64,000 bases of DNA from an uncultured bacterium (GTDB lineage: Bacteria > UBP14 > UBA6098). Location: assembly GCA_964459995.1 (NCBI GenBank), contig CAYWOR010000001.1, forward strand, positions 79,496 through 143,495, in the 5' to 3' direction. Each line of letters starts with the position of its first letter. Position 1 is the stretch's first letter. The position numbers and the translations under genes are program-made. Positions 8,355 through 48,614 of this stretch are shown here, in pieces. The notes under the pieces were generated by a model that saw only the letters and a list, made by a program, of their open reading frames with translations, was not told where the DNA came from and ran no database searches.

Positions 8355-8633
8355 AGAGATGAAATTCTTGTTTTTGGATGAATCGGACGACATGGGAATA
8401 TGTCGGACAGTTGTGTTATTTTTCGTAAGGTAGATAGAGATGAGCAAGAGTCGATTCGCGGGTTCCAAGAAAAATTTTAGGAACAGACTCCTTGCGGGGG
8501 CTGACGGTTCTAGGCCAGCTGGGCGAGCTATATACCTCGTTTTCAAGGCGAGAGATTGTCTTCGCTTTTAAGTTAATTATATTAGTAAAGTGATTATGTC
8601 AATAGTAAAAATATTGATCTGTAAGGATAAACT

Positions 8634-17280: not shown

Positions 17281-18259
17281 TGCGCGCCCAGCGTTCGGCG
17301 AGTTCGATTGCGGCTTTCATGCTACTTGGATCGGCGACATCTTTTCCTGCGATAAGAAAAGCTGTGCCATGGTCGGGGCTGGTGCGGATAATTGGCAGGC
17401 CGAGGGTGGCATTGACACCCTTCTCGAAAGCTATCATCTTGAAGGGTATTAAAACCTGATCGTGAAACATGCCGATAAGCACATCGTAAACAGATCTGAT
17501 TTGCCACAAAAATGCTGTGTCTGGCACAATCGGCCCCGACACATTATAGCCGCGCCCCGAAGCGATAGTCATTCCCTCGACAATTCTCGTCTCCTCATCG
17601 CCCATTATCCCGGACTCGCCGCCGTGCGGATTAAGCGCTAAAACTCCAACGCGCGGCTCTTCGATGCCCTCGAATTTTTTCAGCGCGTCCGAGGTAATCG
17701 CGATCGTTTCGGCGATGAGTTCCGGTGTAACAGCTTTAGGAACATCGCGCAACGCAATATGCCGCGTCGCCGGCACGACCCTGTTCTCCCCCGCGATGAA
17801 TGCCATCACAACGCGGGGAACACTCGCTAAATCCTGCAGAATCTCAGTGTGTCCCGGAAAATCATGCCCGGCCATCTGAATCGCCGCTTTCGACAAAGGA
17901 GCTGTAACCAGAGCATCCGCGCGCCCCTCCATACATTCACGCGCGGCCGTAATAAGCGAGCGAAAAGCAAATTCCCCACCGACGGGCGTCGGGGTTCCGA
18001 AAGGAACAGAGCCGCAGAGTTTCGGTGCACCAAGAAACTCTATCTCCGCCCCCGAATTTTCCTCTCTAATAGAAGCTAATTCCATAATCTCTGCGGCCCA
18101 TCCGTAACGACGGCCAAGTTCGGCGTAAAATTTGGGTTCGCAAGCGAGGATAAAGTGAATGGGCATCTCGCGAAGTGCGAGAACCGCTTTGGCCGTCGTT
18201 TCGGATCCGACGCCCGCGGGATCGCCGAGACTAATTGCGATACGGATTTTTCCGGTCAT
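17264..18259 (-). CDS. pdxA: 4-hydroxythreonine-4-phosphate dehydrogenase PdxA
   Basis: MTGKIRIAISLGDPAGVG start; GHTE, NPHGGE motifs; ATG overlaps stop of upstream gene (ATGA). Longer ORF to 18583 rejected (328-nt overlap). Confidence 0.8.
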   Translation of the reverse strand: MTGKIRIAISLGDPAGVGSETTAKAVLALREMPIHFILACEPKFYAELGRRYGWAAEIMELASIREENSGAEIEFLGAPKLCGSVPFGTPTPVGGEFAFRSLITAARECMEGRADALVTAPLSKAAIQMAGHDFPGHTEILQDLASVPRVVMAFIAGENRVVPATRHIALRDVPKAVTPELIAETIAITSDALKKFEGIEEPRVGVLALNPHGGESGIMGDEETRIVEGMTIASGRGYNVSGPIVPDTAFLWQIRSVYDVLIGMFHDQVLIPFKMIAFEKGVNATLGLPIIRTSPDHGTAFLIAGKDVADPSSMKAAIELAERWARTIAEV

Positions 18260-20997
18260 TTCAGAAGCACGGCCTTTCGAGTGAGAGACATATCGTCGGC
18301 GGAAGCCCGTATCCAGTAGATTCCGGAGGGGGAGTCGCCCAAATCGAACGTTATATTGTGATTTCCGGCGGAGAGTTTTTCTATCTTGCGATGTTGAACC
18401 AATCTGCCATCGATGCCGTAAACTTCTATCTCGATATCGGAATCTTCTGGAAGGGCGATACTCAACGCAAAGGCCGAATTGAATGGGTTCGGAACTGTCG
18501 GGCCGAGAGCAAAAACCTTCGGAAGCACCGCCTCGCCGATATTGCATCCAATATAATATACTTCGCCGAGGTAATATTCCCACTCGCCCACTAATGGCGC
18601 ATCTGAATAAACATAACGACCGTCCGGTATGCTGAGATAGACCTCCAAAGTCTCTGATTCGGTGTTTTCGATTACGGAAATTCCACGGCCGTTAGTGATA
18701 TAAACGCTTCTATCGTAACTTACGCTGGAGTTCGGGTTGCCCTCGATAATCTCGAGTTGAAGTGTGCAGGAATAGGGGAAATACGTTCCTGTGGTGTCGA
18801 AAATATGGAATTCGATGGAATCCAGAAGCGCGCCGACCTCACAGCCGCAGGGCAAAATGTATTCGATAAGGGCTCTCGACTCGATCTGAATCTCGAACAC
18901 TCCGACCATATCGTCGCCGGAATCGACGATCAACCTAAACGCCTCGGGATCGCCATTAGTAATGATGAAACTGCCCAATCCGCCGATTATCTCCACCGAA
19001 TCCGGCGCGAAAACACTGCCGTTGTCGTTCGGATCGATTATTGTGATCGATGCAAAACCGTTGTAGGAGACATCTATGCCTTCGAGATTCATCACACCGA
19101 AAACCACGTTGCGGGGCTCCCATATCGGTTGCCATCTGTCGTATTCCAATGGGAACAGAACACCGCCGCCGGAGGGGTCGAGGAACATTAACGATGTATA
19201 TGTCGGCAAAAGCGGCCCGCTGATTTCCAAATCGACCCGCCCTGCGGAGTCTTTCATTATCGAGATTATGGCGATTCCGCCCTCGAAATTCACTATCCCC
19301 GAGGGAGGATCGAGTTCCGCGCCGCCATCTGCGACAACCACCGCGCTTCCGGAATATCCGGCGTCGATAAGCCCCGCGCCGGTTCGTGCGGTTATCGTTA
19401 GCCCGATGTTCTCCATCGATGGGAAAACCCCCGCGCCGGCTGGTTCAAAACGGTATTGAATCGCTCCGGAACTGTCGGCAATCTCGAAACGAATCTCATA
19501 TTCGTGCATAAAACCGATTAGCCCCTGATCGAACAGCCCCATCATCTCTGCGTCACGAGCGGCGAATCGAAGCGTCTCCGGCTGAGAATTCACGAGATAA
19601 AGCACATATCTGCCTTCGGTCATGTGAAGTCCTGTCTCGCCAGCCATGCCCGCTGTCCATGAATCCCCGGAGGCCGAATCTATAACTACCAGCGAAAAAT
19701 CTGTGTCCTCAAATTCGAGAATTAACCAAGCGTCGAGAGCGTCATCGATCTCGCCGAGACCGTTTATCCCCTGAATTTCCAGCTTCATCGTATCGCCGAC
19801 TATTGCGATATTCGGGCTTCGGAAGGCGAATTTGAGAGCAATATCCGGCGGAACAACCTGAATCGGTGTGTAAAATGGCACAACCAACTCCGGAACCGAG
19901 TCCGTTTCCGCGCCGATGAAGATGCAGAGCGTGTCCGGCTCGGAATCTGTCAGCATAAACCCGGCAAATCCGCCGGTTAATCTTCGCCACGAATCGGGTT
20001 CTAACACCACGCTCTCTGCGCCCTGTAAATCGATTGCATGTAACCGCACTTTTGTGCTACTATTAGAATAATCGGGCGTGGAACCGTTGAAGGCCATCGC
20101 ATAAATCGAAGACGGCCTATCCTGGGCTATTCTCATACCATCGAAACGATTGACAAGCAAAAAGGGCGATTCGGAGGCAGGAACGACATAGACCATAAAA
20201 GTATCGCTAGGAGTCAAAGTGTCCATCAAAGAGTATGCGCGCACGCCCACAGTTTCGCTCTCGGTGTTATGGATAAAGAAGGGCGCCATGCCGTAGATTA
20301 CCGGAAGAACTGCATAGGGCGCCGGTATCCTTGTGAATGGACTCATCACGCCGGCGCTACCGTTTGGGTTCGACTCGTAAACAACCTCGGCGACTGCATA
20401 ATCCATCACTATTCCCGGCAAAAATGAAGGAACCGGTAAGCCGTCCGCGTCCGAGGCCACCGCCCAGTGAAGGTCGAAATTATTATATTGCGATGTGATT
20501 TTCTCCCCAAAAATTTGCCATCGTGTGGCAACTGTTCCGGAAGGAACAACCTCGAAAAGTATCGGCAGAGAAGACTTCATTTCACCAAAAAAGTCCATTG
20601 CGCGAACCGCAAAAAACCCCTCGCCCTCCGCGCGAAGCAAAGCCATGCCCATCTCTGCGTTTACCGGAATCTCCGAAATGTAACTGCCAGTGATGTCGGT
20701 GCAGAAAGTCGTGTCGATATCATAGCGCGACGAGGTCATAAAATGCGGAACCGCGGTGCCGCTCCAAGTAGAATCGACAGGTGCTCGAAGCGGCCTTTCG
20801 GCCTGAATGATCAATATCTGCGCGCCTCCGGAGGGAATCCAATAATCGAGTGCCATCGTTTTGTAAAGAGTGGGGTCGGGTGGAAGCTCCATCGCGGACA
20901 TTATCGAAATCGGCTCGGAAACCCATGGATTCGGCAACTCGAGGGAGACGACAGCGGAAACGAAAACCATAAACAACACAAAAAACTTTCTCGACAT
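18256..20997 (-). CDS. Large secreted hypothetical protein (913 aa) with T9SS-type C-terminal sorting domain
   Basis: Signal peptide MSRKFFVLFMVFVSAVVS; C-terminus VPNPFNSAFALSIALPEDSDIEIEVYGIDGRLV...SGIYWIRA; no other recognisable motif. Confidence 0.55.
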   Translation of the reverse strand: MSRKFFVLFMVFVSAVVSLELPNPWVSEPISIMSAMELPPDPTLYKTMALDYWIPSGGAQILIIQAERPLRAPVDSTWSGTAVPHFMTSSRYDIDTTFCTDITGSYISEIPVNAEMGMALLRAEGEGFFAVRAMDFFGEMKSSLPILFEVVPSGTVATRWQIFGEKITSQYNNFDLHWAVASDADGLPVPSFLPGIVMDYAVAEVVYESNPNGSAGVMSPFTRIPAPYAVLPVIYGMAPFFIHNTESETVGVRAYSLMDTLTPSDTFMVYVVPASESPFLLVNRFDGMRIAQDRPSSIYAMAFNGSTPDYSNSSTKVRLHAIDLQGAESVVLEPDSWRRLTGGFAGFMLTDSEPDTLCIFIGAETDSVPELVVPFYTPIQVVPPDIALKFAFRSPNIAIVGDTMKLEIQGINGLGEIDDALDAWLILEFEDTDFSLVVIDSASGDSWTAGMAGETGLHMTEGRYVLYLVNSQPETLRFAARDAEMMGLFDQGLIGFMHEYEIRFEIADSSGAIQYRFEPAGAGVFPSMENIGLTITARTGAGLIDAGYSGSAVVVADGGAELDPPSGIVNFEGGIAIISIMKDSAGRVDLEISGPLLPTYTSLMFLDPSGGGVLFPLEYDRWQPIWEPRNVVFGVMNLEGIDVSYNGFASITIIDPNDNGSVFAPDSVEIIGGLGSFIITNGDPEAFRLIVDSGDDMVGVFEIQIESRALIEYILPCGCEVGALLDSIEFHIFDTTGTYFPYSCTLQLEIIEGNPNSSVSYDRSVYITNGRGISVIENTESETLEVYLSIPDGRYVYSDAPLVGEWEYYLGEVYYIGCNIGEAVLPKVFALGPTVPNPFNSAFALSIALPEDSDIEIEVYGIDGRLVQHRKIEKLSAGNHNITFDLGDSPSGIYWIRASADDMSLTRKAVLLK

Positions 20998-34651: not shown

Positions 34652-36838
34652 ATGCAAGAGGAAATCACCGAAATAAATGGAATTATCGAGCGGATAACCT
34701 ATTCCAACGAGGAAAACGGCTATGCCGTTCTGCGCCTTCGTTTGGGAAGCGGGCAGATGGCGACGGTCGTCGGAAGGCTGGATATGCGCCGTCCGGGGGA
34801 ATATCTATGTGCGAATGGGAAATGGATTTTTAATCCTCAATACGGCCGGCAATTCGAGGCGGAGTCCTATTCGATTGGTGCCCCGCCGGACAACGATTCG
34901 CTCATGCGCTATCTCGCCAGCGATGTAATCGACGGCATCGGCCAAGAAATGGCGCGGCGGCTGGTCGAGCATTTCGGCGGAGATTTCATGCGCATCGTCC
35001 GCGAAGAGCCGCAAAGGCTCACCGAGGTCGAGGGAATAGGTCGAAAACGCGCCACGCAGATTCGCAAATCACTCCTTAGCGAAGACCGCGAACAGAGAGC
35101 GCTTAGAGAGCTTTCCACGAGGTTGATGGGGTTCGGAATCGGCCCCGCTAAAATACGAAAAATCTACCGCGCCTACCGCGATGCCGCCCTCGATTATCTT
35201 CATCGCGACCCCTACCGCCTCATCGACGAGATAGACGGTTTCGGCTTTACAACCGCAGATATGATAGCCTCGCGGATGAATGTCGCGCCGGACTCGCCCT
35301 CGCGACTAAAAGCAGGCCTCGTTTATGTCCTTGAAAACGCTTCCGGCGAAGGGAACTGCTATCTCGAAAAAAGCGAACTGCTCGAGCAAGCGAGAAAATT
35401 GCTCGCCGTCGAAGGTGCGAAAATCGAAAATGCCTTCGTAAAATTAGCCGATTCACAGGCTGTGGTAGAGGAGAATGGCCGAGTCTATATCGCGAGGTTT
35501 TTCGATTTGGAATGCTCCGTCGCGAATGTGATTGTCGAATTTCTGCGCGCAAAGGGACGAAGTCTGCCAATCGGGACCATTCGTCGCGGCCTCGAAAATG
35601 TGCAAAAAGATTGCGATATCGAGTTCACACACGAGCAAAGAGGCGCAGTTGAGAACATTCTCAGCGAGAATCAAATTCAAATCCTCACCGGCGGCCCCGG
35701 CACGGGAAAAACAACCATCATTCGCGCGGTAGCAAAAATCGCAGATGCAAACCGATGGAACATCGCACTTTGCGCGCCCACAGGAAGAGCCGCACAGAGG
35801 CTCTCAGAAGCGGTTGATATGCCGGCATACACTATCCACCGTCTGCTAAATTTCCGCCCCGACCAGATTTCCGAGCTTGCAGTGCGGAAGTTGAACGTGG
35901 ATTTAATTGTCATCGACGAGATGAGCATGGTGGATTTGGAGCTTTTCAGCGTGGTGCTCTCCGCGCTCGATTCCGGCTGTAAAATCCTATTAGTGGGAGA
36001 TTCCGACCAGCTCCCCAGCGTCGGCCCGGGGCGTATCCTCGGCGACCTTATCGATTCCGCCGCGGTGCCGGTTGTCAAATTATCCCTAATCCACCGTCAG
36101 GCCGTAAAAAGCAGAATAATAGCCGAATCGCACAACATCATCCGAGGTCTTGTGCCCTCGATTAGGAACAACCCCGGCTCCGATTTCTTTTTCCTATGCG
36201 AGGAAGACCGCGAATTAGGCCTTCAGACGGTTATCGACCTCGTCTCGCATCGTTTGCCGACAAAATACGGATTCGATTCGAAACGAGATATTCAGGTAAT
36301 CGTGCCGATGTATAAAGGTGTCTGCGGCGCGAACGAGCTTAATAAAGGCATTCGCGAGATTCTGAATCGCGGGTCATTAAATGACCCGGAAGTCCATTTT
36401 CTCGCCGGCGACAAAGTGATGCAAATCAAGAACAACTACGATCTCGGCGTTTTTAACGGTGATATCGGCATTGTGGCTTCGGTAAACCGCGAGGAGGAGG
36501 AGATTCATGTCGATTTTGGCCGATCGGGCATAGCCTCATATTCGCGCGAGGACCTCGCCCAGCTAACACTCGCCTATGCAATCACGGTTCATAAATCGCA
36601 GGGAAGCGAGGTGCCCTGCGTGGTGATTCCACTCTATACCGAGCATTTCATGCTTCTGCGAAGAAAATTGTTATATACCGCAATCACCCGTGCTAAAGAG
36701 CTTTGCGTGATTGTCGGCCAACCACGCGCGCTTGAACTCGCTGTCCAACGAAGCATCGAAGACCATCGCAACACAGGCCTCGCCGAAAGGCTTCGGAAAA
36801 AAATCGCACACCGGAACGAGATTCCCGAACTCGATTAA
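34652..36838 (+). CDS. recD2: ATP-dependent RecD-like DNA helicase (RecD2, SF1B)
   Basis: Helicase motifs TGGPGTGKTT, DEMSMVD, VGDSDQLPSVGPG, ITVHKSQGSE; N-terminal extension typical of RecD2. Confidence 0.85.
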   Translation: MQEEITEINGIIERITYSNEENGYAVLRLRLGSGQMATVVGRLDMRRPGEYLCANGKWIFNPQYGRQFEAESYSIGAPPDNDSLMRYLASDVIDGIGQEMARRLVEHFGGDFMRIVREEPQRLTEVEGIGRKRATQIRKSLLSEDREQRALRELSTRLMGFGIGPAKIRKIYRAYRDAALDYLHRDPYRLIDEIDGFGFTTADMIASRMNVAPDSPSRLKAGLVYVLENASGEGNCYLEKSELLEQARKLLAVEGAKIENAFVKLADSQAVVEENGRVYIARFFDLECSVANVIVEFLRAKGRSLPIGTIRRGLENVQKDCDIEFTHEQRGAVENILSENQIQILTGGPGTGKTTIIRAVAKIADANRWNIALCAPTGRAAQRLSEAVDMPAYTIHRLLNFRPDQISELAVRKLNVDLIVIDEMSMVDLELFSVVLSALDSGCKILLVGDSDQLPSVGPGRILGDLIDSAAVPVVKLSLIHRQAVKSRIIAESHNIIRGLVPSIRNNPGSDFFFLCEEDRELGLQTVIDLVSHRLPTKYGFDSKRDIQVIVPMYKGVCGANELNKGIREILNRGSLNDPEVHFLAGDKVMQIKNNYDLGVFNGDIGIVASVNREEEEIHVDFGRSGIASYSREDLAQLTLAYAITVHKSQGSEVPCVVIPLYTEHFMLLRRKLLYTAITRAKELCVIVGQPRALELAVQRSIEDHRNTGLAERLRKKIAHRNEIPELD

Positions 36839-36866
36839 CCCAAGATTTGTCAGAAATTCAGTGGAA

Positions 36867-38429
36867 TCAACTGCCGAAAACAGTTCGCCACATGAAGAAG
36901 GCTATTGCGAAGAAAATGCCGGCGGTCAGAAGTTTGATTGTCGGCGTGTTCTTTTTGAGGAAATTTGTCAGCTGTTCGCTGGTCGTGCCGAAAAACACAA
37001 CCGCGAAAACGCCAATCAGCGGGATTATAAACATCAAATTATACAGGAAAAGGTAGAAAACAGCCTTTGTTTTAAGTCCCGGCGCGCCCATCACATAGAT
37101 AATTGTCGGAAGATAAACCTGCCCTGTGCAAGCCATCTCGAGGATGCTCACAAAAAAGCCGGTAGTGATCGAGGCGAAAACGATATTCCTACGCGCGCGC
37201 GGCTCGTTCTCTGAGATGATTACCTTGTGAATTCGCTTTTTAAGCTTGTCGGGAAGCTGAAGGGTCATCTCGGCGAACTCGCCCTTGCGGCTTCGGAAGA
37301 AATCATATATCGAAAGCACCCCGAGAGCAAGAACCAGAACACCTGTGGCCATATAAATCCATCTCGCGATGACATGAATGAATGGCAACGCTTGCATGAA
37401 CTTCAAAAAGCCTGTGCCGACGAGAAAATATGTCAGGAATACCGATAGTGTGAAAGCGATGCCAACCATAAGTATTTCGCGGCGTTTACGATTAACCACG
37501 GTGAGGAAAGTAACGAAGAATATAATCGCTCCGAAAGCGCAAGGGTTTACGCCGTCGATTAAACCGGCACCGAGAACCGGAAGAATCTGGAAACGCTGGA
37601 ATCGGGTGCGAATCCTCTCGTCGGCCTGAGCAAGCTCGGCTTCGGTTGCAATCCATACTGAGTCCATAAAAGCCGAGTTTTCCAGCTTAACCACCGCCTC
37701 TTCGACAGCGCGGAAACTTATCTGGCTCGTAACGAAATATGTATCCGGCAAGAAAATCGTCGGGGTCGCCAGATGGAGGTTTTCCGGCACTCCGAGGCGA
37801 TAAGCCAACACCTCGGCGAGAAGCTTCGCATCCTTTTCCTCGATATTAAAATCGCGTATAACGAGCGTAGGATGGTATCTCTGCAGAAGTTGAAGGTCAT
37901 AGGTTACCCTCGAACAATGCTGGCATCCGGGTTCCCAGAAGAAGGCCATTGTTACGGTTTGTATTGACTCTTGCGCGGCCTTTTGGAGCGTATCTTCACC
38001 CTCAGCAGGCTGAGACGACGTAGTATCGGGGCTCAAAGTGTCAGCGACTTTTATCTGCGAATGGGCGTCGTGATAATTGTTGCCTAATAGATATGTAAGG
38101 TAGGGCAAGAACCGCTCCGTTACCTCGTCTCCGCCGAAAACACTATCCCCGATGAAAACGACCGGGACCTCATTGTTCTCGTCGCCGAATTCACGTTCCA
38201 TTTGAATAAGACGTTCGTAATTATCGAGATTGTCCTCGATTTCGTTAGTTTGAAGCGTGATTCGTCCGGGGTAGTTTGCGAAAATCGGCGGGAAATACTC
38301 CTCGATAACCTCTTTGCAGTGTTCGCAGGTCTTCGAGTAGAAAACGATGACATCCACGCGCTCCAGCGGCAAAGCCGTGCCTGCGATGCAAAACAGAAGC
38401 ATTATTATAGCGAAGTTATATCGCATCAA
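36867..38429 (-). CDS. DsbD/CcdA-type thiol:disulfide interchange membrane protein with two N-terminal periplasmic thioredoxin-like domains
   Basis: Signal peptide; CxxC motifs YSKTCEHCKE and WEPGCQHCSR; DsbD TM-domain cysteines in GVNPCAFGAI and LEMACTGQVYLP. Confidence 0.7.
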   Translation of the reverse strand: MMRYNFAIIMLLFCIAGTALPLERVDVIVFYSKTCEHCKEVIEEYFPPIFANYPGRITLQTNEIEDNLDNYERLIQMEREFGDENNEVPVVFIGDSVFGGDEVTERFLPYLTYLLGNNYHDAHSQIKVADTLSPDTTSSQPAEGEDTLQKAAQESIQTVTMAFFWEPGCQHCSRVTYDLQLLQRYHPTLVIRDFNIEEKDAKLLAEVLAYRLGVPENLHLATPTIFLPDTYFVTSQISFRAVEEAVVKLENSAFMDSVWIATEAELAQADERIRTRFQRFQILPVLGAGLIDGVNPCAFGAIIFFVTFLTVVNRKRREILMVGIAFTLSVFLTYFLVGTGFLKFMQALPFIHVIARWIYMATGVLVLALGVLSIYDFFRSRKGEFAEMTLQLPDKLKKRIHKVIISENEPRARRNIVFASITTGFFVSILEMACTGQVYLPTIIYVMGAPGLKTKAVFYLFLYNLMFIIPLIGVFAVVFFGTTSEQLTNFLKKNTPTIKLLTAGIFFAIAFFMWRTVFGS

Positions 38430-38456
38430 TCACTTAGACATCTCGTCTGTCAGAGT

Positions 38457-39239
38457 TTATTGCGGGCCGGAGCCTTTGACCGGAATAGTGAAAAACAGGG
38501 GGTCGCCCGGAATTCCCTTGGCTTCCAAAGTAACCGAAGCCTTAATATATGTAGCCGCGCAGTCATAATCAGTGCAAAGTTCGAGAGTAAGCTCGGTCGA
38601 TTTGCCCGGCTTGAGTTTTTTGTCCTTCAGCTTCGGAACGCCGAAAACATCGGCGGTATAATCGATTATTTCAAGCTCCACTTCGGACTCGGTCGGGTTC
38701 TCGATTTTGAAAACCATCTGCTTTGGCGGATCCTCACCGCGCGGAATATCGAGCGCTCTCGGGACGACATTCAACGGCAGGCCGGTGCTGTCCATATCGG
38801 CGGAGAATGTTACGCGAATGCTTCTATTCACGGGGTCGTTGCTGTTGATAATGGCGCTTTTAGATGTTTTATGAAAATACCTCGCGCTATTGAAAACAAC
38901 CGTAACCTCAGTCTCTTCGCCGGGTTCGAGTTGCATCTTTTTCATTGGGGCGTTGGTGCATCCGCAGGTTGTTCTGACGCGCTGAATTCTCAGCTCGCCC
39001 TCGCCGGCATTGCGGACTTTGAAAGAATGGACGAGGTAGTAACCCTCGGGTGAAAAACCGAAATCGAAGCGCTGTTCGGGCACTACTATTTCGGGTTGGG
39101 GGCCGGTCAAATCAACCGGAAATTCTTCGTCTTCGGTCATCTGCTCATTCTGAGCGAAAACCGGGGCGAAAAGTAGGATCATCATGATTGAGATCAATGT
39201 CCACTTCGCCATCATTTTCTCCTTGTTGAGAATTGTCAT
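38457..39239 (-). CDS. DUF1573 domain-containing secreted protein
   Basis: Signal peptide; RVRTTCGCTNAP DUF1573-type CxC motif; ATG overlaps lpd stop (ATGA). Confidence 0.6.
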   Translation of the reverse strand: MTILNKEKMMAKWTLISIMMILLFAPVFAQNEQMTEDEEFPVDLTGPQPEIVVPEQRFDFGFSPEGYYLVHSFKVRNAGEGELRIQRVRTTCGCTNAPMKKMQLEPGEETEVTVVFNSARYFHKTSKSAIINSNDPVNRSIRVTFSADMDSTGLPLNVVPRALDIPRGEDPPKQMVFKIENPTESEVELEIIDYTADVFGVPKLKDKKLKPGKSTELTLELCTDYDCAATYIKASVTLEAKGIPGDPLFFTIPVKGSGPQ

Positions 39240-40600
39240 TTATGCAAAGCCTCTCCGAGAGCATCGAGAGCGGATTCTTTCAGAATTTCGCCGAAAGTAG
39301 GATGGGCAATAATCGTGTTTCGCCAATCATCGATTTTAATGCGGTGGGTTACGGATAAACTCGCCGCTGTGAGCATCTCAGAAGCACCTCTGCCCGCAAT
39401 ATGTATGCCAACGATGACATCGTCGCCGGTCGCGATAACTTTCGCAAAACCCTCTACTGCAGAGGCGGTTTTCGCCCTTCCGCTGGCCTGATAGGGGAAC
39501 ATCCCGATTTTGACCTCGTCGAATTTCTCCTTCGCCTGCGGTTCAGTTAATCCGACCGTGCCGATTTCCAGCGCGGTAAATGTCGCACCGGGGATGGCAT
39601 GATTGTCTATGTTTTTTCCTGCGCCGAGCATATTCTCGACAGCGATTTCGCCCATCGCGCTGGCCCAATGTGCGAGAAAGGGGTCTCCGCAGACATCGCC
39701 GGCGGCATAGATTCCCTCTCCAGCGGAGAGCTTGGAGTCGATAACAATCGCGCCGCGCTCGATTTTCACACCTGTGGTTTCGATTCCTTCGGGAGGGGTC
39801 GGTGTGCGTCCGACTGCGGCAAGTATTTCCTCCGCTTCGAACCTTTCGCCGCCGGCATAGGCGACAACCCCCTCCGCTGTGCGCTCGATTTTATTTATTG
39901 CGATTCCGGTTCTAAGGGCGACACCCTCTGCGGCAAGCACTTTGGTTATCACTGCGACGATATCGGGGTCGAATCCCGGCAGAATATTCTCCATCACCTC
40001 GATAATTGTAACCTTGCACCCGAAAGTTGCGAAGATATGCGCGAATTCGCAACCGATAACGCCGCCGCCGATTATAATCATGCTGGAGGGCATTTTTTCG
40101 GTGTTTAGGGCATCGGTGGAGTCCCAGACTCCGGAGCCGCTCCAGCCGTCTATTGGAAGCACGCGCGGAACGCTTCCGGTGGCGATAAGCAAGTTATCAT
40201 GCTCGATCTTCTCGCTTGAACCGTCCTTCGCAACCACCTCGACCGTGCCTACTCCGGAAATTTTGCCGATGCCGTCAGCCACGCGGATACCGTTGGTTTT
40301 CATAAGATATTCGATGCCCTTTACGAGCCGTTTGACGACGGTATCCTTTTTGCGGAGCATTCTAAGCCAATCGTGGGAGATTTCGCCCTCGAAGACCTTG
40401 TCCTTGGCCGCGTTGTGGAGGTCGTGCAAAGCCTCGGCATAGTGAAAATATGTTTTTGTGGGGATACATCCGCGGTTTGTGCAGACTCCACCGAGGGAGT
40501 CCTTTTCGACGAGAGTAACATCCGCGCCCAGTTGGGTGGCTCTAATCGCGGCGACATAGCCTGCAGGCCCGCCGCCGAGTATTGTTATTCTTTTTGCCAT
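39236..40600 (-). CDS. lpd: Dihydrolipoyl dehydrogenase family flavoprotein disulfide reductase
   Basis: GGGPAGY FAD motif, redox-active GGVCTNRGCIPTK, IIGGGVIGCEFA NAD motif, C-terminal AHPTFGE; no E1/E2 genes adjacent. Confidence 0.75.
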   Translation of the reverse strand: MAKRITILGGGPAGYVAAIRATQLGADVTLVEKDSLGGVCTNRGCIPTKTYFHYAEALHDLHNAAKDKVFEGEISHDWLRMLRKKDTVVKRLVKGIEYLMKTNGIRVADGIGKISGVGTVEVVAKDGSSEKIEHDNLLIATGSVPRVLPIDGWSGSGVWDSTDALNTEKMPSSMIIIGGGVIGCEFAHIFATFGCKVTIIEVMENILPGFDPDIVAVITKVLAAEGVALRTGIAINKIERTAEGVVAYAGGERFEAEEILAAVGRTPTPPEGIETTGVKIERGAIVIDSKLSAGEGIYAAGDVCGDPFLAHWASAMGEIAVENMLGAGKNIDNHAIPGATFTALEIGTVGLTEPQAKEKFDEVKIGMFPYQASGRAKTASAVEGFAKVIATGDDVIVGIHIAGRGASEMLTAASLSVTHRIKIDDWRNTIIAHPTFGEILKESALDALGEALHK

Positions 40601-40683
40601 CGTTCTCCTTAGAGCAAATTAACTTTTCATTATAAACCATATTGCGCCGATGTCAAAGAAAAATCGAAAAGCTAAGATAATCA

Positions 40684-40718
40684 TTGATAATGGGCGAAGA
40701 AAAAGATAATTTAGCGAT
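40684..40718 (+). promoter_or_regulatory. Sigma70-like promoter upstream of tsaD with -10 element 7-8 nt from the ATG (possible leaderless transcript)
   Basis: TTGATA (40684-40689), 15-16 nt spacer, GATAAT/ATAATT (40705-40711), 7-8 nt, ATG at 40719. Confidence 0.4.
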
Positions 40719-41720
40719 ATGAAAGTATTAGGGATAGAAACATCCTGCGACGATTCAGCGGTCGGCATTGTCGATAGCGGAAAAGTTCTCGCCAGCGTGG
40801 TGCATACGCAACAGGTTCACGCAAAATGGGGTGGCGTAATTCCGGAGCTTGCCAGCCGAGACCATGTGCGCACGATAATTCCGGTTATCCGCGAAGCGCT
40901 CAGCATTTCCGGCCTTTCGATTTCCGATATCGAGGGGATTTCGGCATGCAGAGGGCCTGGGCTTTTAGGGTCGCTTTTGGTTGGGCTTTGCGTTGGAAAA
41001 TCGATGGCTTACGGTCTTGGAATACCCTTTGTAGGAGTGCATCATCTCGAGGGGCATCTTCTCGCGGCGCAAATTGGCGCGCATATCGAACCGCCCTATC
41101 TCGCGCTGATTGTAAGCGGAGGTCATTCGCACATCTACGAAGTTCCGGAAGCCGGCAATTATATTCTAATCGGAAAGACCCGCGACGACGCCGCCGGAGA
41201 GGCATTCGACAAAGGAGCGAAACTTTTGCGTTTGCCCTATCCGGGAGGCCCCTCGATTCAAAATGCGGCGACAGGCGGGAATCCTTCCGCCTTCGATTTT
41301 CCTCGTGCGATGCAGATTTCCGGCGAGACCGATATGTCATTCAGCGGGCTTAAAACCGCGCTTTTGCTCGAGGTCGAGAAGCACGGCGAATCCGCGATCG
41401 AGGGTATGACCGCTAATCTTGCCGCGAGTTATCAGGAAGCCATTGTCGATGCGCTCATATGGAAGCTTAACGAGGCGGCGGAAAAGACCGGCCATCGGAA
41501 AATAGCAGTGGTTGGCGGTGTTTCCGCCAATGCGAGGTTTAGAGAAAAGCTCGGGGAATTCGGCGATAGGAAGGGTTGGGATATCGCACTTCCGCCGATG
41601 GCATTTTGCACTGATAACGGCGCTATGATAGCCGCGGCGGGGGAGTTCAGGTTTCTTCGCGGGGAGGAATCGCCACAAGACATAACGGCGGTCAGCAGAT
41701 GGCCGCTGGAAGACCTTTAG
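40719..41720 (+). CDS. tsaD: tRNA N6-adenosine threonylcarbamoyltransferase TsaD (Kae1/Gcp)
   Basis: MKVLGIETSCDDSAVGIV, metal-binding HHLEGH, SGGHSH, GGVSAN. Confidence 0.9.
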   Translation: MKVLGIETSCDDSAVGIVDSGKVLASVVHTQQVHAKWGGVIPELASRDHVRTIIPVIREALSISGLSISDIEGISACRGPGLLGSLLVGLCVGKSMAYGLGIPFVGVHHLEGHLLAAQIGAHIEPPYLALIVSGGHSHIYEVPEAGNYILIGKTRDDAAGEAFDKGAKLLRLPYPGGPSIQNAATGGNPSAFDFPRAMQISGETDMSFSGLKTALLLEVEKHGESAIEGMTANLAASYQEAIVDALIWKLNEAAEKTGHRKIAVVGGVSANARFREKLGEFGDRKGWDIALPPMAFCTDNGAMIAAAGEFRFLRGEESPQDITAVSRWPLEDL

Positions 41721-41729
41721 GAGAAGATT

Positions 41730-42632
41730 ATGCTCGAACAGACGGTAAATTATCTCAAGGAAACAGGGATCGAAGATGTAATCCAAAGCGTTAAAGGCTA
41801 TTGCCGGGCGGTTGGCGTGAAAATGCCGGAAAAGGCTGGTGTGAAATTAGAACTTGCGAGGCGCATGGTGCTTCCCAATCCCGGTCTTGACGAGTTTCAA
41901 GCACTTTCGGTGAGCGAATTGCAGGTAATAAAGCGGACGGTTCAGCGTGCAGAGGAGCTTCGCGAATATGGCGAGAGACTTGCCGCCTTCAGAGCGCTTA
42001 TCGCCGATTGCGAAAACCATGTTCCAGACCAGAAACTCAGCCTCGTAGCGAAAGACCTCGCGATGAGGTTCCAGCCGGAACTTCTTTTGGGCGATTCTCT
42101 CTCTCCTTACGCCCTCGATGCGAGGTGCGAGAATTTCGCAAATGATTATCAATCATGTTATATCGCTTTCCACAACAGTTGGCATGACGAGAAGCGCAAA
42201 AATACGGCGCGAGTCGAAAAAATCGCCACATTGGCCTTAGCACTCGATACGCTCGACACGTTGATGGGTGTGGATGTTCCGCGTCAGAATAGACGAAAGC
42301 ATGAACTTTCCGCTCTGCAGAATTTGTGTTCCTGCGAAGACCTCGGTTCACACCAAATAGGCTATGCCGCATTTTGTCCAAATTGCGGCCTTAAGTTTGG
42401 CGAGGTCTATGATTGGGTGAATCTGCCCAGATTCGAGGCCGAAGTTCGAAGACAATTGGAGGAGCATCAGGCAAAGCTCGCGCGAAGACTCGCGGACGAC
42501 CTCATTAAGCGAGTGCCGGATGACCCGCTTACCGGAATAGTCGAGGCGATTTCCGTGAGCGATTTGTCCAAGCTTCCGAACATTCTTACCGACGATGTGG
42601 TCGAAGCGCTTAGGAAGATATTAGGCAAATGA
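41730..42632 (+). CDS. Hypothetical protein (300 aa, soluble, Cys-containing)
   Basis: No recognisable family by eye; possible zinc-ribbon-like CSCED...CPNCG; 10 nt after tsaD stop. Confidence 0.45.
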   Translation: MLEQTVNYLKETGIEDVIQSVKGYCRAVGVKMPEKAGVKLELARRMVLPNPGLDEFQALSVSELQVIKRTVQRAEELREYGERLAAFRALIADCENHVPDQKLSLVAKDLAMRFQPELLLGDSLSPYALDARCENFANDYQSCYIAFHNSWHDEKRKNTARVEKIATLALALDTLDTLMGVDVPRQNRRKHELSALQNLCSCEDLGSHQIGYAAFCPNCGLKFGEVYDWVNLPRFEAEVRRQLEEHQAKLARRLADDLIKRVPDDPLTGIVEAISVSDLSKLPNILTDDVVEALRKILGK

Positions 42633-44369: not shown

Positions 44370-44906
44370 TTACATCTCTGCGGATTTGATGATTGCAATG
44401 ACCTCGCCGGGCTGTTCGGCGGAGCGAAGACGTTCGAGCGTTTCCTCGAAACGAAGAATTGTTGCGATTTTTGGCCAGAGACGGTTGTAGATCGCATCGT
44501 CGTATGTTGGAGCGACCATTATTAGAAAAAGATCGACCGGAATACCGTCGGAAGCCTCCCAATCGATTGGATAATCTGTTCGTGCGAATCCGATGGCGAT
44601 ATCGCGGACATGCTCGCTTCGGACATGCGGCACTGCGATTCCGCGCCCGAGACAGGTCGGAGCTTTGCGTTCGCGGAAGATGAGGTCATTATATAATCTA
44701 CCCTGATGCTGAATCACCTCGGAGGGCAATATCAGGTCGATAAGCTCGGCGATTATTTGCTCGCGCATATCACGCGGCGATGGAAGACAGGGCTCTTCGT
44801 CGGGGGGAGTGCATTCGATGATTTCCTGCCAAGCCATCGGTGCCTGAAGCTGAAGCCGGATATTGTCCACACCTATTATTCGCGATATTCTCGATTCCTT
44901 AGCCAT
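44370..44906 (-). CDS. ptsN: PTS EIIA type-2 domain protein (PtsN-like regulator)
   Basis: Active-site GIAVPHVR motif; start chosen at MAKESRISRIIG. Confidence 0.6.
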   Translation of the reverse strand: MAKESRISRIIGVDNIRLQLQAPMAWQEIIECTPPDEEPCLPSPRDMREQIIAELIDLILPSEVIQHQGRLYNDLIFRERKAPTCLGRGIAVPHVRSEHVRDIAIGFARTDYPIDWEASDGIPVDLFLIMVAPTYDDAIYNRLWPKIATILRFEETLERLRSAEQPGEVIAIIKSAEM

Positions 44907-46167
44907 CTTCGCTCTTAAGCCTCCGCGCAAGCATTTCGCTTGCGGTTATAAATTCGATTCCCCATTTTTCCAAATCCGGGAGGACACGTTTTATTGCAAT
45001 CAAAGTATTTGGGCGGGCATGGCCGACAATCAGGACACCGTCTTCGGATTCTCGGCTTGACATTGCAAGCTCTATGAATTTCTGCGCGATAGCCGAGGTG
45101 TCGTCAACTACATCGATGTTGCCATTTTGACAAGTTGTGGGAATACTAAAGCCTTGCATTGTCTTCATTGCGCATGTGTATGGTGTTGTTCTGCTGTCGA
45201 TGAAGAACAGGCCGGAGTCTTTTAACGCCTTGGCCACATTTTCCATTGTTTGCGCATCGGCAGTGGCTTTGCTTCCCATATGATTGTTCATTCCAACCGC
45301 GCTGGGAACCTGCTCGACAGCCTCCCGAACACGCTTTTGAATCTCCGCCGGCGGAAGTTTGATATAAACCGCCTTTGGGCCGGGGTCGTTTTTTGGGTAT
45401 GCCTCAGGCTCCATCGGCATATGCACAATCGTCTCTATACCCCTATTCGCAAGCGCTTCCGCGGATTTTTTTGTGTGTTTCTCGAAAGGAATAATCGCGG
45501 CTGTGAAAGGAATCGGAAGGTCGAGAAACCCCTTTATCAAATCGAAATCAATATCGCCGAAATCGTCGATTACAAGCGCGACAGTGCCGGTTAAAGGCTT
45601 GTCGGAAAGCTCTCTGCGAAGAGTGATTTTCCGCATCACGATATCGCCAATTCCCGCAGAAATAACAACCTCCCTGCCGTAACGTGTCTCGACCGCATCG
45701 ACAATATCTCCTCCGGCCTCGCGCCACGCCGCCTGAATAGTGTGATTCGCCATTCCAAGCGGAAAAGCTCTGCTTATATTGGCCGTGATATCGATAGCGT
45801 TGCCGCCGATTCCCCCAAGTTTCGCGCCTGTGCGAATTCTAAGCTTGTTTCGCGGCGCGCCGAGTCTCGCCAAAGCTCGATACAGCGATGTGTCGAGTAA
45901 CTCTTCGGTAGCTTCGGGGTAAATCGGCTTTCGGACAGCCGTTTCGCCATATTCTGTATGTTGAACTGCCGCAGAGTCGCCTTGCGAGGGCGGAGGCGGA
46001 GGTGGAGTCTCGGCGATAACCGTTTCTTCACGATGCGGAAGACTTTTCACGATAAAATAAACCACTCCCGTCAAAATCACCAACGCGAAAAAAATTGTTA
46101 AGCCGATACCGACTCCACGTGGTGGTGTCTTTGAGATACGTCTTTTTCTATGAAGCGTGTCCGCCAT
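44899..46167 (-). CDS. Divergent polysaccharide deacetylase family protein (YibQ-like)
   Basis: N-terminal TM anchor, Pro-rich linker, C-terminal domain with ALVIDDFG, HMPME, NNHMGS motifs. Confidence 0.6.
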   Translation of the reverse strand: MADTLHRKRRISKTPPRGVGIGLTIFFALVILTGVVYFIVKSLPHREETVIAETPPPPPPSQGDSAAVQHTEYGETAVRKPIYPEATEELLDTSLYRALARLGAPRNKLRIRTGAKLGGIGGNAIDITANISRAFPLGMANHTIQAAWREAGGDIVDAVETRYGREVVISAGIGDIVMRKITLRRELSDKPLTGTVALVIDDFGDIDFDLIKGFLDLPIPFTAAIIPFEKHTKKSAEALANRGIETIVHMPMEPEAYPKNDPGPKAVYIKLPPAEIQKRVREAVEQVPSAVGMNNHMGSKATADAQTMENVAKALKDSGLFFIDSRTTPYTCAMKTMQGFSIPTTCQNGNIDVVDDTSAIAQKFIELAMSSRESEDGVLIVGHARPNTLIAIKRVLPDLEKWGIEFITASEMLARRLKSEDG

Positions 46168-46170
46168 TCG

Positions 46171-47121
46171 TCAATTACCCGTTTCGAAATAGAAACCCAT
46201 TCCGGGATTTCTCTTGAATCCATATTTCATAACTACTTGTGCCGCAGTTTCGACCGAGCCGGAGTCTGTATCCGACCGCACAACTCCGACCGCCCGGCTC
46301 ATCGTGGCCGCAGTATCGGGCATATCCCCGAAAAAGACGACGAAACCGCCATTCGGAACCGAGTCGATAATTACATATAATAATTCAGCGGAGAGTTCTT
46401 TGTCAACCAAAGTTTCGAAATATAGCACCGAAGTCGAATCACCCGATAAGTAAATATGTTCGAGTTTGTGCGGATCGATAACCTCGAAGGCTTCACCCGA
46501 AGGCTTTTGCATCGATGTTATTATTGCGCTCGTGCCGATAAAAATAAACCATCCTGCGACGATAATAGCCAGAATTTTCGCGGCAACACGAAAAAACTTC
46601 ATCCTTCCAAGTTCACCGAAAAGGCTTAATGGTAGGAAAAAGACCGATGTGCCAGCAAAAAATGCCGCAAAAAAGAGCGCTCCGTAGATAGCCCCACCGC
46701 TTTCGAAAGCCCTTCCTGCGGCAATCAGAAAGGCGGGGCAGGGATTGAGACCGAGAATAAGCCCGAAAAGAATCGGGTGTGAAAGGAACTTTCCGCGCTT
46801 TTTGGCGGCGCAGTCATGTTCGATATGCCTTTTACGAAGGGCGTTGTAGATTATCAAAATAGCGAGGACGATATAAACCGCGCCCATCGCTGGTGTTTTG
46901 TGAGAATGATGAACATGTCCGCCAAGCGCGCCCGCAATCGCCCCAAAAGATATGTAGCCGATGAATTTGCCCGCGAGAAACCACAGAATTGTTGCGAAAT
47001 TGTTTCTAAGACGTCTTTCCTCTAAGAAGAGATAGGGCAAAATCACCGGCATGCAGGTTCCGAGGCATGACATACCAAGAGACAGCCCCAAAAAAAAGCC
47101 CTCTCCGGCGGAAGCGACCAT
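46171..47121 (-). CDS. CcdA/DsbD-like membrane protein with C-terminal soluble domain
   Basis: TM1 GMSCLGTCMPVILPY and TM4 GLNPCPAF resemble DsbD/CcdA Cys motifs; about 110-aa C-terminal extension of unknown function. Confidence 0.45.
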   Translation of the reverse strand: MVASAGEGFFLGLSLGMSCLGTCMPVILPYLFLEERRLRNNFATILWFLAGKFIGYISFGAIAGALGGHVHHSHKTPAMGAVYIVLAILIIYNALRKRHIEHDCAAKKRGKFLSHPILFGLILGLNPCPAFLIAAGRAFESGGAIYGALFFAAFFAGTSVFFLPLSLFGELGRMKFFRVAAKILAIIVAGWFIFIGTSAIITSMQKPSGEAFEVIDPHKLEHIYLSGDSTSVLYFETLVDKELSAELLYVIIDSVPNGGFVVFFGDMPDTAATMSRAVGVVRSDTDSGSVETAAQVVMKYGFKRNPGMGFYFETGN

Positions 47122-47591
47122 CAGCTATCCTTTTCCTCGGGGATGAAAATCGCGCCTGTGGGGCATATAAGAACACACGCTCCGCAACGGACACATTTTT
47201 CGGTGTCGATTACCGGCTTCGCATCGACCATCGATATTGCTTTGACCGGGCAGACTCTTGCGCATTCGCCGCAGGAGACACATTGCGCCGAATCGAGCAC
47301 GGGAAAACTCGTGATCTCGAGTTCGGAGCCGGCGGAGTCGAATTGTCCATAGACTGGATAGATAACTTTAATAGGACAAACCTTCTCGCAAACGCCGCAG
47401 GAAATGCACTTCCCCGGGTCGATAACGGCTTTTCTATTCTCCATTGTAATAGCCTTTGTTGGGCAGTGAATCGTGCATTTGCCGCAACCGATACATTTTA
47501 CGGTGTCCACTCGGTAGAACAAAACGCTTCCGACCGAAAGGGCTATTACTGCGAATAAAGCTAATATTGCGATTATAAAACGTGATTTCAT
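47121..47591 (-). CDS. Membrane-anchored ferredoxin with four 4Fe-4S cluster motifs
   Basis: N-terminal TM helix; four CxxCxxCxxxCP motifs (CIGCGKCTIHCP, CISCGVCEKVCP, CVSCGECARVCP, CVRCGACVLICP). Confidence 0.75.
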   Translation of the reverse strand: MKSRFIIAILALFAVIALSVGSVLFYRVDTVKCIGCGKCTIHCPTKAITMENRKAVIDPGKCISCGVCEKVCPIKVIYPVYGQFDSAGSELEITSFPVLDSAQCVSCGECARVCPVKAISMVDAKPVIDTEKCVRCGACVLICPTGAIFIPEEKDS

Positions 47592-47603
47592 TTTAGGCCT
47601 TTC

Positions 47604-48614
47604 TCAGCAAATCCGCGGTAGAGGGGAACCTTCGGGTTGCGCGAGTTTGCGCCTTCCGCCGGATTTTGTTTCGAGAATAACTCCTTGGCCCTTCTCGACA
47701 TGGCCGATTATACACGCGCCTTTGCCGTAGGGGCTTTTTGCGATGGAGTTTAGCAAAGCGCTTGCCGACTTTTCGGGCGCGATGAAAGCCATTCTCCCCT
47801 CGGAAGCCATGAACAGAGGGTCATAGCCAAAAAGCTCACATATATTATGAACGGTGCTTTCGATAGGAATTTCCGCTTCATCGAGGACAAATTTTGTCTG
47901 CGATTGCGAGGCGAGTTCGAGCAGAATTCCGCCGAGACCTCCTCGTGTGGGGTCCCGCATGGCATGGATTTCAGCCGAATCGATGGAGTTTTGAACCATG
48001 GATGCAAGCGGCGCGCAGTCGCTCTCTACGGGGGGGTCGGCCTTCAGATTTTCGCGCAGAGCGATTATCGAGGCGGCATGTTGTGCGATAGGGCCGTTGA
48101 CGATGATGACATCGCCCGGACGGACACTCGCCGGATCGATATTGATGTCGTCGCGAAGAATGCCGATTCCCGATGTCGTGATGTAAATGCCGTCGCCTTT
48201 ACCGCGCTGAACGACCTTCGTATCGCCGCATACGATTGCTATTTCTGCTTCGACGGCGGTTCTCGCCATAGAGCGCACGATTCGTTCGAGAAGTGCTATT
48301 TCGAGACCCTCTTCGAGAATAAATGAGGCAGAGAGCATTGCTGGTTTTGCACCGGAGGCGGATAGATCGTTCACAGTGCCGCAAATTGAGAGTTTGCCTA
48401 TATCGCCGCCGGGAAACTCGATCGGATCGATCACGAAACCGTCTGTTGTGAATGCTATTCGCGATGATGAGACGGCGCAGACCGCGGAATCATTGAGTTT
48501 CGACAGCATCGGATTATCGAAATGGCGCAGAAATAGGTCTCTGACAAGTCGCGTGGTCGCTCTTCCGCCCTCGCCGTCTATTAATCTAATTTTGTTGTGT
48601 ATGTCATTCATCAT
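47604..48614 (-). CDS. hypE: Hydrogenase maturation protein HypE (PurM-like superfamily)
   Basis: Close match along its length to recalled E. coli HypE (FTTDGFVIDP, GGDIGKLSICGT, GDTKVVQRG, RDPTRGG) and the diagnostic C-terminal PRIC. Confidence 0.8.
   Translation of the reverse strand: MMNDIHNKIRLIDGEGGRATTRLVRDLFLRHFDNPMLSKLNDSAVCAVSSSRIAFTTDGFVIDPIEFPGGDIGKLSICGTVNDLSASGAKPAMLSASFILEEGLEIALLERIVRSMARTAVEAEIAIVCGDTKVVQRGKGDGIYITTSGIGILRDDINIDPASVRPGDVIIVNGPIAQHAASIIALRENLKADPPVESDCAPLASMVQNSIDSAEIHAMRDPTRGGLGGILLELASQSQTKFVLDEAEIPIESTVHNICELFGYDPLFMASEGRMAFIAPEKSASALLNSIAKSPYGKGACIIGHVEKGQGVILETKSGGRRKLAQPEGSPLPRIC

Follow-up and report, generated by a model that had tools for sequence, protein, structure and literature searches.

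What does a dihydrolipoyl dehydrogenase (Lpd) do at the head of an operon whose two other genes encode a secreted protein with a domain of unknown function, DUF1573, and a membrane protein that carries two thioredoxin (Trx) folds? The question arises from the window, a stretch of 64,000 nucleotides from an uncultured bacterium (GTDB lineage Bacteria; UBP14; UBA6098; GenBank assembly GCA_964459995.1, contig CAYWOR010000001.1, positions 79,496 to 143,495 of the forward strand), for which an earlier sequence-only reading had proposed a dedicated relay of electrons from NAD(P)H to the periplasm. The three genes on which that proposal was built are real, and the open reading frame (ORF) list of the window places them co-directionally on the minus strand at 39236-40600, 38457-39239 and 36867-38429. 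With their likely starts they are:

39236..40600, minus strand: lpd, an NAD-type dihydrolipoyl dehydrogenase, class I flavoprotein disulfide reductase, cytoplasmic, 454 amino acids (aa) (TIGR01350, Pfam)
38457..39215, minus strand: secreted two-domain DUF1573 protein, 252 aa from the likely start (ORF readable from 39239, 260 aa)
36867..38426, minus strand: Trx-Trx-CcdA-like membrane protein, 519 aa from the ATG at 38426 (the mechanical ORF starts at a TTG at 38429 and has 520 aa)

The components are of known kinds: an E3 enzyme, a core of the DsbD/CcdA superfamily, thioredoxin folds and a DUF. As an explanation of the whole operon we propose, tentatively, an envelope-reducing thiol-disulfide relay of the DsbD/ScsB/CcdA kind with Lpd as its NADH-linked input.

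The DUF1573 protein and its membrane partner

Examination of the loci that carry relatives of the membrane protein (L001 and so on) revealed that a DUF1573 gene lies immediately upstream of the membrane gene in all lpd-bearing loci, in L004 and in a sister clade (L007-L009), and that within the window's clade and this sister clade the adjacency holds down to 44% membrane-protein identity. Five loci (L028, from a Poribacteria metagenome-assembled genome (MAG), L044, L065, L071 and L154) encode the two as a single in-frame fusion with DUF1573 at the N-terminal end, and 5/5 fusion proteins carry CxC, CxxC, CxxC, NPC and CTGQ in that order. DUF1573 is also found near, not adjoining, the membrane gene in L029 (Aerophobetes MAG) and L055 (Clostridia MAG); beside the nearest DUF1573 protein outside the subfamily (P0256), the next ORF, at the contig end, encodes a small, unrelated membrane protein. 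The suggestion that DUF1573 is a partner of the membrane protein is thus upheld by adjacency in several phyla and by fusion in five loci, and this pairing, as judged from sequence, is the strongest result of the analysis. We consider it likely that the DUF1573 protein and the Trx-Trx-CcdA-like protein together form a cysteine relay, and DUF1573 as a fourth cysteine module of this family appears to be new.

The membrane protein is made up of the following parts:

38088..38357, minus strand: first outward-facing thioredoxin fold, aa 24-113, with CEHC at 38316-38327
37680..37955, minus strand: second outward-facing thioredoxin fold, aa 158-249, with CQHC at 37914-37925 (AlphaFold (AF2) model, Foldseek, alignment)
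36873..37643, minus strand: six-helix CcdA/DsbD-superfamily core, aa 262-518 (hhalign, jackhmmer, AF2)
37539-37541, minus strand: Cys296 in DGVNPCAF, in the broken transmembrane helix 1 (TM1)
37128-37130, minus strand: Cys433 in EMACTGQVYLP, in the broken TM4

The AF2 model of this protein, built on 58 sequences (mean pLDDT 83, pTM 0.70), consists of an N-terminal hydrophobic helix (signal or anchor), a Trx fold, a disordered linker (aa 117-152), a second Trx fold and six TM helices, and the breaks in TM1 and TM4 fall at N-P-C296 and C433-T-G-Q, respectively. An alignment of 14 family members revealed six invariant cysteines; among 58 members C168, C171, C296 and C433 are invariant, and the CxxC of the first Trx fold is at least 90% conserved. 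Basic loops after TM1 (NRKRRE) and before TM4 (RSRKGE...RARRN) agree with the Trx domains lying outside. The two periplasmic thioredoxin-like CxxC domains described earlier are therefore confirmed as two outward-facing Trx folds with invariant or near-invariant CxxC. Foldseek matched the periplasmic part best to tandem-Trx proteins (2ayt (PDO), 2ywm and 6il7, the N-terminal domain of AhpF being among them). Like PDO of Aquifex and Pyrococcus and the AhpF N-terminal domain, the protein has two consecutive Trx folds; unlike these, which are soluble, cytoplasmic and fed directly by a flavoprotein, the tandem here sits outside the membrane, attached to a CcdA-like core.

A Pfam scan of the window membrane protein returned no match and an NCBIfam scan returned only ArsG (26.7 bits). 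When 58 relatives were scanned singly against Pfam, only sub-threshold matches appeared, to SfLAP in 8 and to DsbD_TM in 4 (at most 24.5 bits vs a cut-off of 27.1). A sequence-profile search of the PDB with the whole protein matched only Trx, glutaredoxin (Grx) and DsbA proteins, an internal 3+3 repeat in the core was not detectable by hhalign, and hhalign of the family against the DsbD_2 protein of the window, a template of a single sequence, gave a probability of 12.6%. With the canonical CcdA gene of L061 as seed (Pfam DsbD_TM, E 3.8e-17), jackhmmer gathered another 12 canonical CcdA ORFs among the loci under study, and its fourth iteration drew in the entire Trx-Trx-membrane family; in the resulting alignment, Cys39 and Cys152 of CcdA share columns with C296 and C433 (Cys in 189/192 and 188/192 sequences, respectively). 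Comparison of the family by hhalign with a template of 13 canonical CcdA sequences, which held no bridging sequence, gave a probability of 95.5% (E 1.4e-8, 203 columns) with both redox cysteines aligned. The hhalign result and the cysteine alignment together indicate that the core is a divergent member of the CcdA/DsbD superfamily, so that the label "DsbD-type" given to this protein is borne out by profile-profile comparison with canonical CcdA where Pfam is silent.

The family has 599 relatives in the protein database and occurs in at least 596 species genomes, mostly of Anaerolineae, and also in Thermodesulfobacteriota, Gemmatimonadota, Latescibacterota, WOR-3, Poribacteria, Cloacimonetes and others. 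At least 581 metagenome contigs carry it as well; among the matches listed, identity to the window protein was at most 45%, and they included no further locus with the three genes of the window in a row. The Trx-Trx-CcdA-like architecture is a large family missed by Pfam and appears to be new. A short canonical CcdA (DsbD_TM) gene lies at most 6 kb from the family gene in at least 13 loci (L113, L023, L149, L024, L048, L100, L127, L097, L150, L094, L128, L049 and L061), indicating that many genomes keep both kinds of conduit side by side. In two loci from Thermodesulfobacteriota-affiliated MAGs (L013:2979-5881 and L016:2181-5083, the latter labelled Syntrophorhabdus), an FtsX-like permease, an ABC ATPase and a secreted DsbC_N/Thioredoxin_4 protein precede the family gene, which points to a different periplasmic partner set. 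Two related loci (L021:4404-5156 and L123:602-1345) have a conserved ORF of ~250 aa just upstream of the family gene with a shared ...LTPDN..CPAS motif, which may resemble DUF169.

The partner begins with a signal peptide (...APVFA/QN), followed by the DUF1573 immunoglobulin (Ig)-like domain (Pfam PF07610, 75.9 bits vs a cut-off of 26.1) and a second Ig-like domain. It had been described as secreted and as having a CGC motif of its own, and both features are present, the motif within TCGCT:

38958..38966, minus strand: CGC (CxC) motif of the DUF1573 domain, candidate redox-active pair (alignment)

Both CxC cysteines are invariant in 20/20 aligned DUF1573 proteins, fused and distant ones included, and the remaining cysteines of the window protein are unconserved in the same alignment. 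DUF1573 selenoproteins with a UGC motif are catalogued in two reviews of prokaryotic selenoproteins (PMC9312934, PMC13188914; family OS_HP2 of PMC1976440), marking the first CxC cysteine as a redox-active or otherwise catalytic position. The window protein scored 72.9 bits against the model of the OS_HP2 subfamily (NF041425, cut-off 100), and is by this measure a Cys-containing relative outside that subfamily. The literature that we searched gives DUF1573 no function and does not describe it as a partner of DsbD, ScsB or CcdA systems.

The proposed relay and its likeness to known systems

In the relay that we propose, a cytoplasmic reductant would reduce Cys296/Cys433 within the six-helix CcdA-like core, and the core would reduce the CxxC of one of the two periplasmic Trx folds fused at its N-terminus. 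Whichever fold is reduced first would reduce the other, the last would reduce the CGC of the secreted Ig-like DUF1573 protein, and DUF1573 would act in the manner of DsbD-alpha to hand off to periplasmic clients, of which TlpA/AhpC-type reductases or peroxiredoxins may be the best candidates. The architecture of the membrane protein, with two Trx folds fused to the core, would fit a hand-off to a periplasmic Trx-like CxxC.

For the DsbD superfamily, the template (PMC3322552) comprises a two-cysteine membrane core, a periplasmic Trx module and a final, class-specific alpha module, which can be separately encoded; its clients include TlpA-like proteins and an envelope peroxiredoxin, and ScsB has separate alpha modules and peroxiredoxin clients (PMC3322552). 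With DsbD of E. coli the window system shares a membrane core whose TM1 and TM4 each hold a redox cysteine, a CxxC-bearing Trx domain in the periplasm, an Ig-like domain, also periplasmic, that has a Cys pair and stands last in the hand-off, and the logic of a multi-step dithiol-disulfide cascade (PMC3322552). Unlike DsbD, in which alpha, core and gamma form one chain, the window protein runs Trx-Trx-core and the Ig-like module is separate (or fused at the far N-terminus in the five loci named above); there are six core helices, as in CcdA, and not eight, two Trx modules and hence four cysteine pairs vs three, a CxC in the Ig-like module, and ACTGQ in TM4 where DsbD has xPC. The alpha, eight-helix beta and gamma parts that in one chain make up DsbD proper are thus not what the window membrane protein contains.

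A minimal six-helix CcdA-type core is shared with the ScsB/CcdA systems (ScsB-alpha, ScsC, PprX, ResA/CcmG/TlpA), where the alpha modules of different classes are not homologous and may have genes of their own (PMC3322552). The core of the window protein differs from these in being too divergent for Pfam DsbD_TM and in having tandem Trx domains fused N-terminally. A search for structural homology of DUF1573 to DsbD-alpha found none, and DUF1573 looks like a final "alpha" hand-off module that would be analogous, not homologous, to DsbD-alpha.

Clients of ScsB/CcdA systems include cell-envelope peroxiredoxins and TlpA-like proteins, and proteins of both kinds were seen with the genes under study. 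On the minus strand of the window at 1059-2525, there is a gene for a 488-aa fusion of DUF1573 (CDC motif) with AhpC-TSA/Redoxin (CDHC motif), and the operon of L028 encodes a secreted double TlpA-like protein; by analogy, each is a candidate client of the relay. The mechanical ORF of the DUF1573-AhpC/TSA fusion overlaps an S8 subtilase gene just upstream (2360-4156, also on the minus strand), and an S8 peptidase and a DUF1573 protein adjoin in B. thetaiotaomicron too (BT0212-13, PMC10434189).

The Lpd gene and the possible source of the electrons

Lpd has no signal peptide and matches Pfam Pyr_redox_2, Pyr_redox and Pyr_redox_dim. It scored 447.8 bits against the NCBIfam equivalog TIGR01350 (lipoamide_DH), above the cut-off of 408.8, and lies far under the cut-offs of MerA, glutathione reductase, transhydrogenase and other related flavoprotein models. 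The CTNRGC motif seen in the earlier reading is present:

40466..40483, minus strand: redox-active disulfide C40-T-N-R-G-C45 of Lpd, residues 40-45 (translation; conserved in clade and outgroup Lpds)

An NAD-binding motif with the acidic residue of the NAD type (GGGVIGCEF...TIIEV) and the His-Glu dyad (AHPTFGE) are conserved across the clade, and the C-terminus (...LGEALHK) is cysteine-free and has no Cys pair. Against ~100 other Lpds, the clade has 5 specific fixed differences (Y51, K84, A293, M409 and F436), none in a catalytic motif; the idea of a neofunctionalised Lpd was dropped, as there is no catalytic-site change of any sort. Judged on these motifs and scores, Lpd is an ordinary E3, and the expectation that it would stand apart from true E3 enzymes failed, since it clusters with the bona fide ones. 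Among the ORFs of the 64-kb window that were scanned with Pfam, none was found to encode E1, E2, GcvH or another lipoyl-domain protein, so the flavoprotein does lack an E1/E2 partner nearby, as had been observed. This is normal in the group: all three outgroup Lpds with readable context (L089, L174 and, from a Zixibacteria MAG, L175) are likewise orphans, and the absence of E1/E2 near the window lpd is not distinctive.

Both neighbours of the operon are on the plus strand, tsaD upstream (divergent) and a gene for a RecD2-type helicase downstream (convergent). Ahead of lpd lies a promoter-like site:

40629..40656, minus strand: promoter-like site TTGACA-16-TATAAT ahead of lpd (12/12 sigma-70 consensus matches)

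This is the sole perfect site within 36500-41000, it stands just upstream of an AAGGAG ribosome-binding site ahead of the lpd ATG (40600), and a scan of the same interval found no other convincing or strong internal promoter or terminator. The ATGA overlap of lpd and DUF1573, from which translational coupling had been argued, is physically there and is probably not the start in use: the overlapping DUF1573 ATG (39239) has no Shine-Dalgarno sequence, an AAGGAG lies ahead of the ATG ATG at 39215/39212, and all DUF1573 homologues begin at a position equivalent to M-K-K-W in the alignment. The AAGGAG and the homologue starts point to 39215/39212, placing the two genes ~20 nt apart without overlap (the gap is 16-28 nt in relatives), and the coupling argument is weak. 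The gap between DUF1573 and the membrane gene is 27 nt, as described, or 30 nt if the start is the ATG at 38426.

The order lpd-DUF1573-membrane gene (hereafter triad) was found in the window (with identical copies L001-L003), L006, L086, L087, L088, L090, L091 and L092, at 61-76% identity to the window for Lpd and 54-76% for the membrane protein. The sequence-only reading had named absence of this order from related genomes as grounds for giving it up, and the triad recurs. Its flanks are tsaD and recD2 in the window and L086, hypothetical and mobile genes in L087, and a transposase upstream with an aminotransferase among the downstream genes in L092; downstream of it lie pheS-rplT-infC-thrS in L088 and L091 and genes for large hypothetical proteins in L090, giving at least five distinct flank contexts. 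All Lpds of this clade (60-76% identity) with visible context sit in the triad; outside the clade, the next Lpd relatives reach no more than 47% identity. When the membrane proteins were placed on a neighbour-joining tree, the loci with lpd fell into a single clade, in which L004 (with no adjoining lpd) is nested, and L007-L009, also without adjoining lpd, form its sister clade; in the MAG of L007, the nearest Lpd is encoded elsewhere by an orphan gene (L089). This pattern indicates that lpd adjacency was gained once, lost at least once and kept through several flank rearrangements. Retention of the triad across flank changes is moderate evidence for functional coupling, and a frozen operon with a housekeeping gene between promoter and pair would yield the same pattern. 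The clade-specific recruitment of lpd appears to be new.

By analogy with known dithiol relays, Lpd and NADH may feed the conduit, probably through a lipoyl carrier or free lipoamide, a step that we offer as a possibility and no firmer. In the Zixibacteria-affiliated clade, where lpd is the promoter-proximal gene, NADH input by way of a lipoylated carrier or free lipoamide would be more plausible than direct contact. Lpd, DlaT, AhpD and AhpC of Mycobacterium tuberculosis reportedly make up an NADH-dependent peroxidase (a finding attributed to Bryk and colleagues in 2002), in which Lpd is the NADH entry of a dithiol relay ending at a peroxiredoxin-type client. A role for Lpd outside 2-oxoacid oxidation is proposed here too; unlike that relay, which is cytoplasmic and needs DlaT and AhpD, the one here would cross the membrane, and no lipoyl carrier or AhpD was found in the operon or the window.

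Nearly as likely is that the same relay is fed by cytoplasmic thioredoxin and that lpd is an ordinary E3 gene, serving for example a glycine cleavage system or 2-oxoacid dehydrogenase encoded elsewhere, which landed once between the promoter and the pair and has been kept since because an operon break would silence the downstream genes. Such a passenger would account for an E3 with intact catalytic motifs and no signs of specialisation, for orphan lpd genes being the rule in related lineages (L089, L174 and L175), for a single lpd clade with a nested loss (L004) and an lpd-less sister clade, as one insertion event would leave them, and for family members of other phyla without a flavoprotein neighbour; the perfect promoter is of a constitutive type that suits a housekeeping gene, and a cytoplasmic loop motif (LQLPDxLKKRIH) common to triad and non-triad members suggests a common donor. 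Yet the triad stayed intact, at 54-76% protein identity, while both of its flanks were replaced at least four times, and the known members of a distinct Lpd clade are all in it. The only obvious link of a cytoplasmic NADH:disulfide oxidoreductase to a transmembrane dithiol conduit is electron supply, and lipoyl-domain genes adjoin two distant family members, which also speaks against a passenger.

The first of these two lipoyl neighbours is a stand-alone gene at L028:154-522 (ETEKF motif, Pfam Biotin_lipoyl E 2.2e-15), on the same strand as the family gene and at the head of a tight operon in the order lipoyl protein, double TlpA-like protein, 498-aa protein and DUF1573-Trx-Trx-core fusion. 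The second, at ~3264-3530 of L123 (a metagenome contig), is an ORF of ~90 aa with a canonical ETDKA motif, split by one frameshift, ~130 nt past the membrane gene on the same strand. We looked for an Lpd upstream of the L028 lipoyl gene, and no ORF runs in from the contig start; the first 120 nt of that contig (L028:1-120) form a long perfect palindrome, probably an assembly artefact. It is conceivable, and we think it unlikely, that lipoyl chemistry and not thioredoxin can power Trx-Trx-CcdA-like reductases, in the order NADH, Lpd, lipoyl carrier, membrane cysteines, Trx modules, the CxC/UxC of DUF1573 and peroxiredoxin/TlpA clients; the operonic lpd and the lipoyl genes of L028 and L123 would then be three views of one input route. 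As they stand, the lipoyl neighbours are a lead and not evidence.

Several observations weigh against Lpd as the input and against our explanation of the operon as a whole. The lipoyl neighbours amount to 2/171 loci and were found post hoc, and that of L123 is absent from its closest relative, L021. Lpd itself is ordinary, with the E3 equivalog cut-off passed and its 5 clade-specific substitutions outside the catalytic motifs, and neither a lipoyl carrier nor an AhpD-like adaptor nor a thioredoxin was found in the operon or the rest of the 64 kb. The pair occurs without a neighbouring lpd in L007-L009, in L004 and in the fused forms, and at more than 150 other loci no flavoprotein gene adjoins the family gene, so that lpd adjacency looks like a single gain. 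The membrane domain found no PDB match, either with a membrane-only sequence profile or in structure searches, and the CxHC sites are nearer to those of DsbA/PDI than to those of thioredoxin, which makes the redox poise of the periplasmic domains uncertain. All characterised DsbD-family proteins are thioredoxin-fed (PMC3322552), which favours the passenger explanation. What stands of the dedicated NAD(P)H-to-periplasm relay is the probable cysteine relay of DUF1573 and the Trx-Trx-CcdA core; its dedication to NAD(P)H through this Lpd suffers from an enzyme that is unspecialised and joined to the pair in one clade only.

An improbable alternative is a Mer-like system for a thiophilic metal or metalloid (Cu, Hg, Se, Te or As species), in which DUF1573 would capture the ion as MerP does, the membrane protein would import it like MerT and the flavoprotein would reduce it like MerA. 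E3 enzymes have been reported to show tellurite reductase side activity. The three-part composition parallels MerP, MerT and MerA, with a cytoplasmic class I flavoprotein disulfide reductase, a periplasmic protein with a Cys motif and a Cys-bearing membrane protein; the Lpd-family protein reaches 302 bits on the MerA model, the membrane protein has its weak ArsG-family match, the family gene of L061 has ArsR-like and permease-like ORFs nearby (as read from ORF translations only), and DUF1573 selenoprotein forms appear alongside metal-related selenoproteins (PMC9312934). Unlike the Mer proteins, however, the flavoprotein here is an E3 and the membrane protein is CcdA-like, matching CcdA cysteine for cysteine; two CxxC Trx folds suit a disulfide cascade better than an ion path, and there is no metal-sensing regulator nearby among the Pfam-scanned ORFs of the window. 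MerA itself was rejected as the identity of the flavoprotein, which falls short of the cut-off (302 bits vs 454), has no C-terminal Cys-Cys and no N-terminal metal-binding domain, and retains the His-Glu dyad of disulfide reductases.

Lpd normally oxidises dithiols and reduces NAD+, the usual direction of E3. An oxidising pathway on this pattern, standing in for DsbB/VKOR, in which the CxHC domains would take electrons from periplasmic cysteines and pass them through the core and Lpd to NAD+, would accord with the histidine of CEHC/CQHC, typical of DsbA (CPHC) and PDI (CGHC), and with the finding of no DsbB or VKOR gene in the window, but is very improbable, because transfer from protein dithiols (about -120 to -250 mV) to NAD+ (-320 mV) is thermodynamically uphill, electrons go outwards in all characterised CcdA/DsbD/ScsB cores (PMC3322552) and most family members lack the Lpd neighbour.

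Other genes of the window and the meaning of the proposed relay

A second DsbD-superfamily gene of the window, the DsbD_2 gene mentioned above, encodes 316 aa with a soluble C-terminal extension. It belongs to a row at 46171-48614 on the minus strand that also holds a multi-cluster ferredoxin gene (47121-47591) and a gene for an AIRS/AIRS_C protein (47604-48614), with a divergent polysaccharide deacetylase gene just downstream of the row (44899-46167). Between tsaD and ftsE lies a plus-strand gene for 300 aa (41730-42632). Its product matches Pfam DUF6079 over the C-terminal part alone (1013-1184 of 1238), and it is conserved in L086, a close relative. At 7152-10194 on the plus strand there may be a poly-gamma-glutamate capsule locus, to judge by a Mur-ligase-like protein and a CapC homologue, and much of the remaining window is given to polysaccharide synthesis and export (glycosyltransferases, Wzz, Wza-like, Wzi and two Polysacc_synt flippases). 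A 913-aa protein encoded at 18256-20997 on the minus strand has a Por_Secre_tail (type IX secretion C-terminal sorting) domain, which hints at a type IX secretion system.

If Lpd does feed the conduit, this would be the first DsbD-type system run by NADH and lipoamide dehydrogenase in place of thioredoxin, and it would tie the redox carriers of central metabolism directly to periplasmic thiol homeostasis. If it does not, the triad would be a warning that a clade-conserved gene order can be a frozen accident. DUF1573, a domain of unknown function, occurs widely in Bacteroidota, Planctomycetota and many candidate phyla, and some of its forms contain selenocysteine. The finding that it adjoins a CcdA-type conduit, or is fused to one, provides it with a concrete role that can be tested, that of a redox-active hand-off module in an envelope-reducing pathway.

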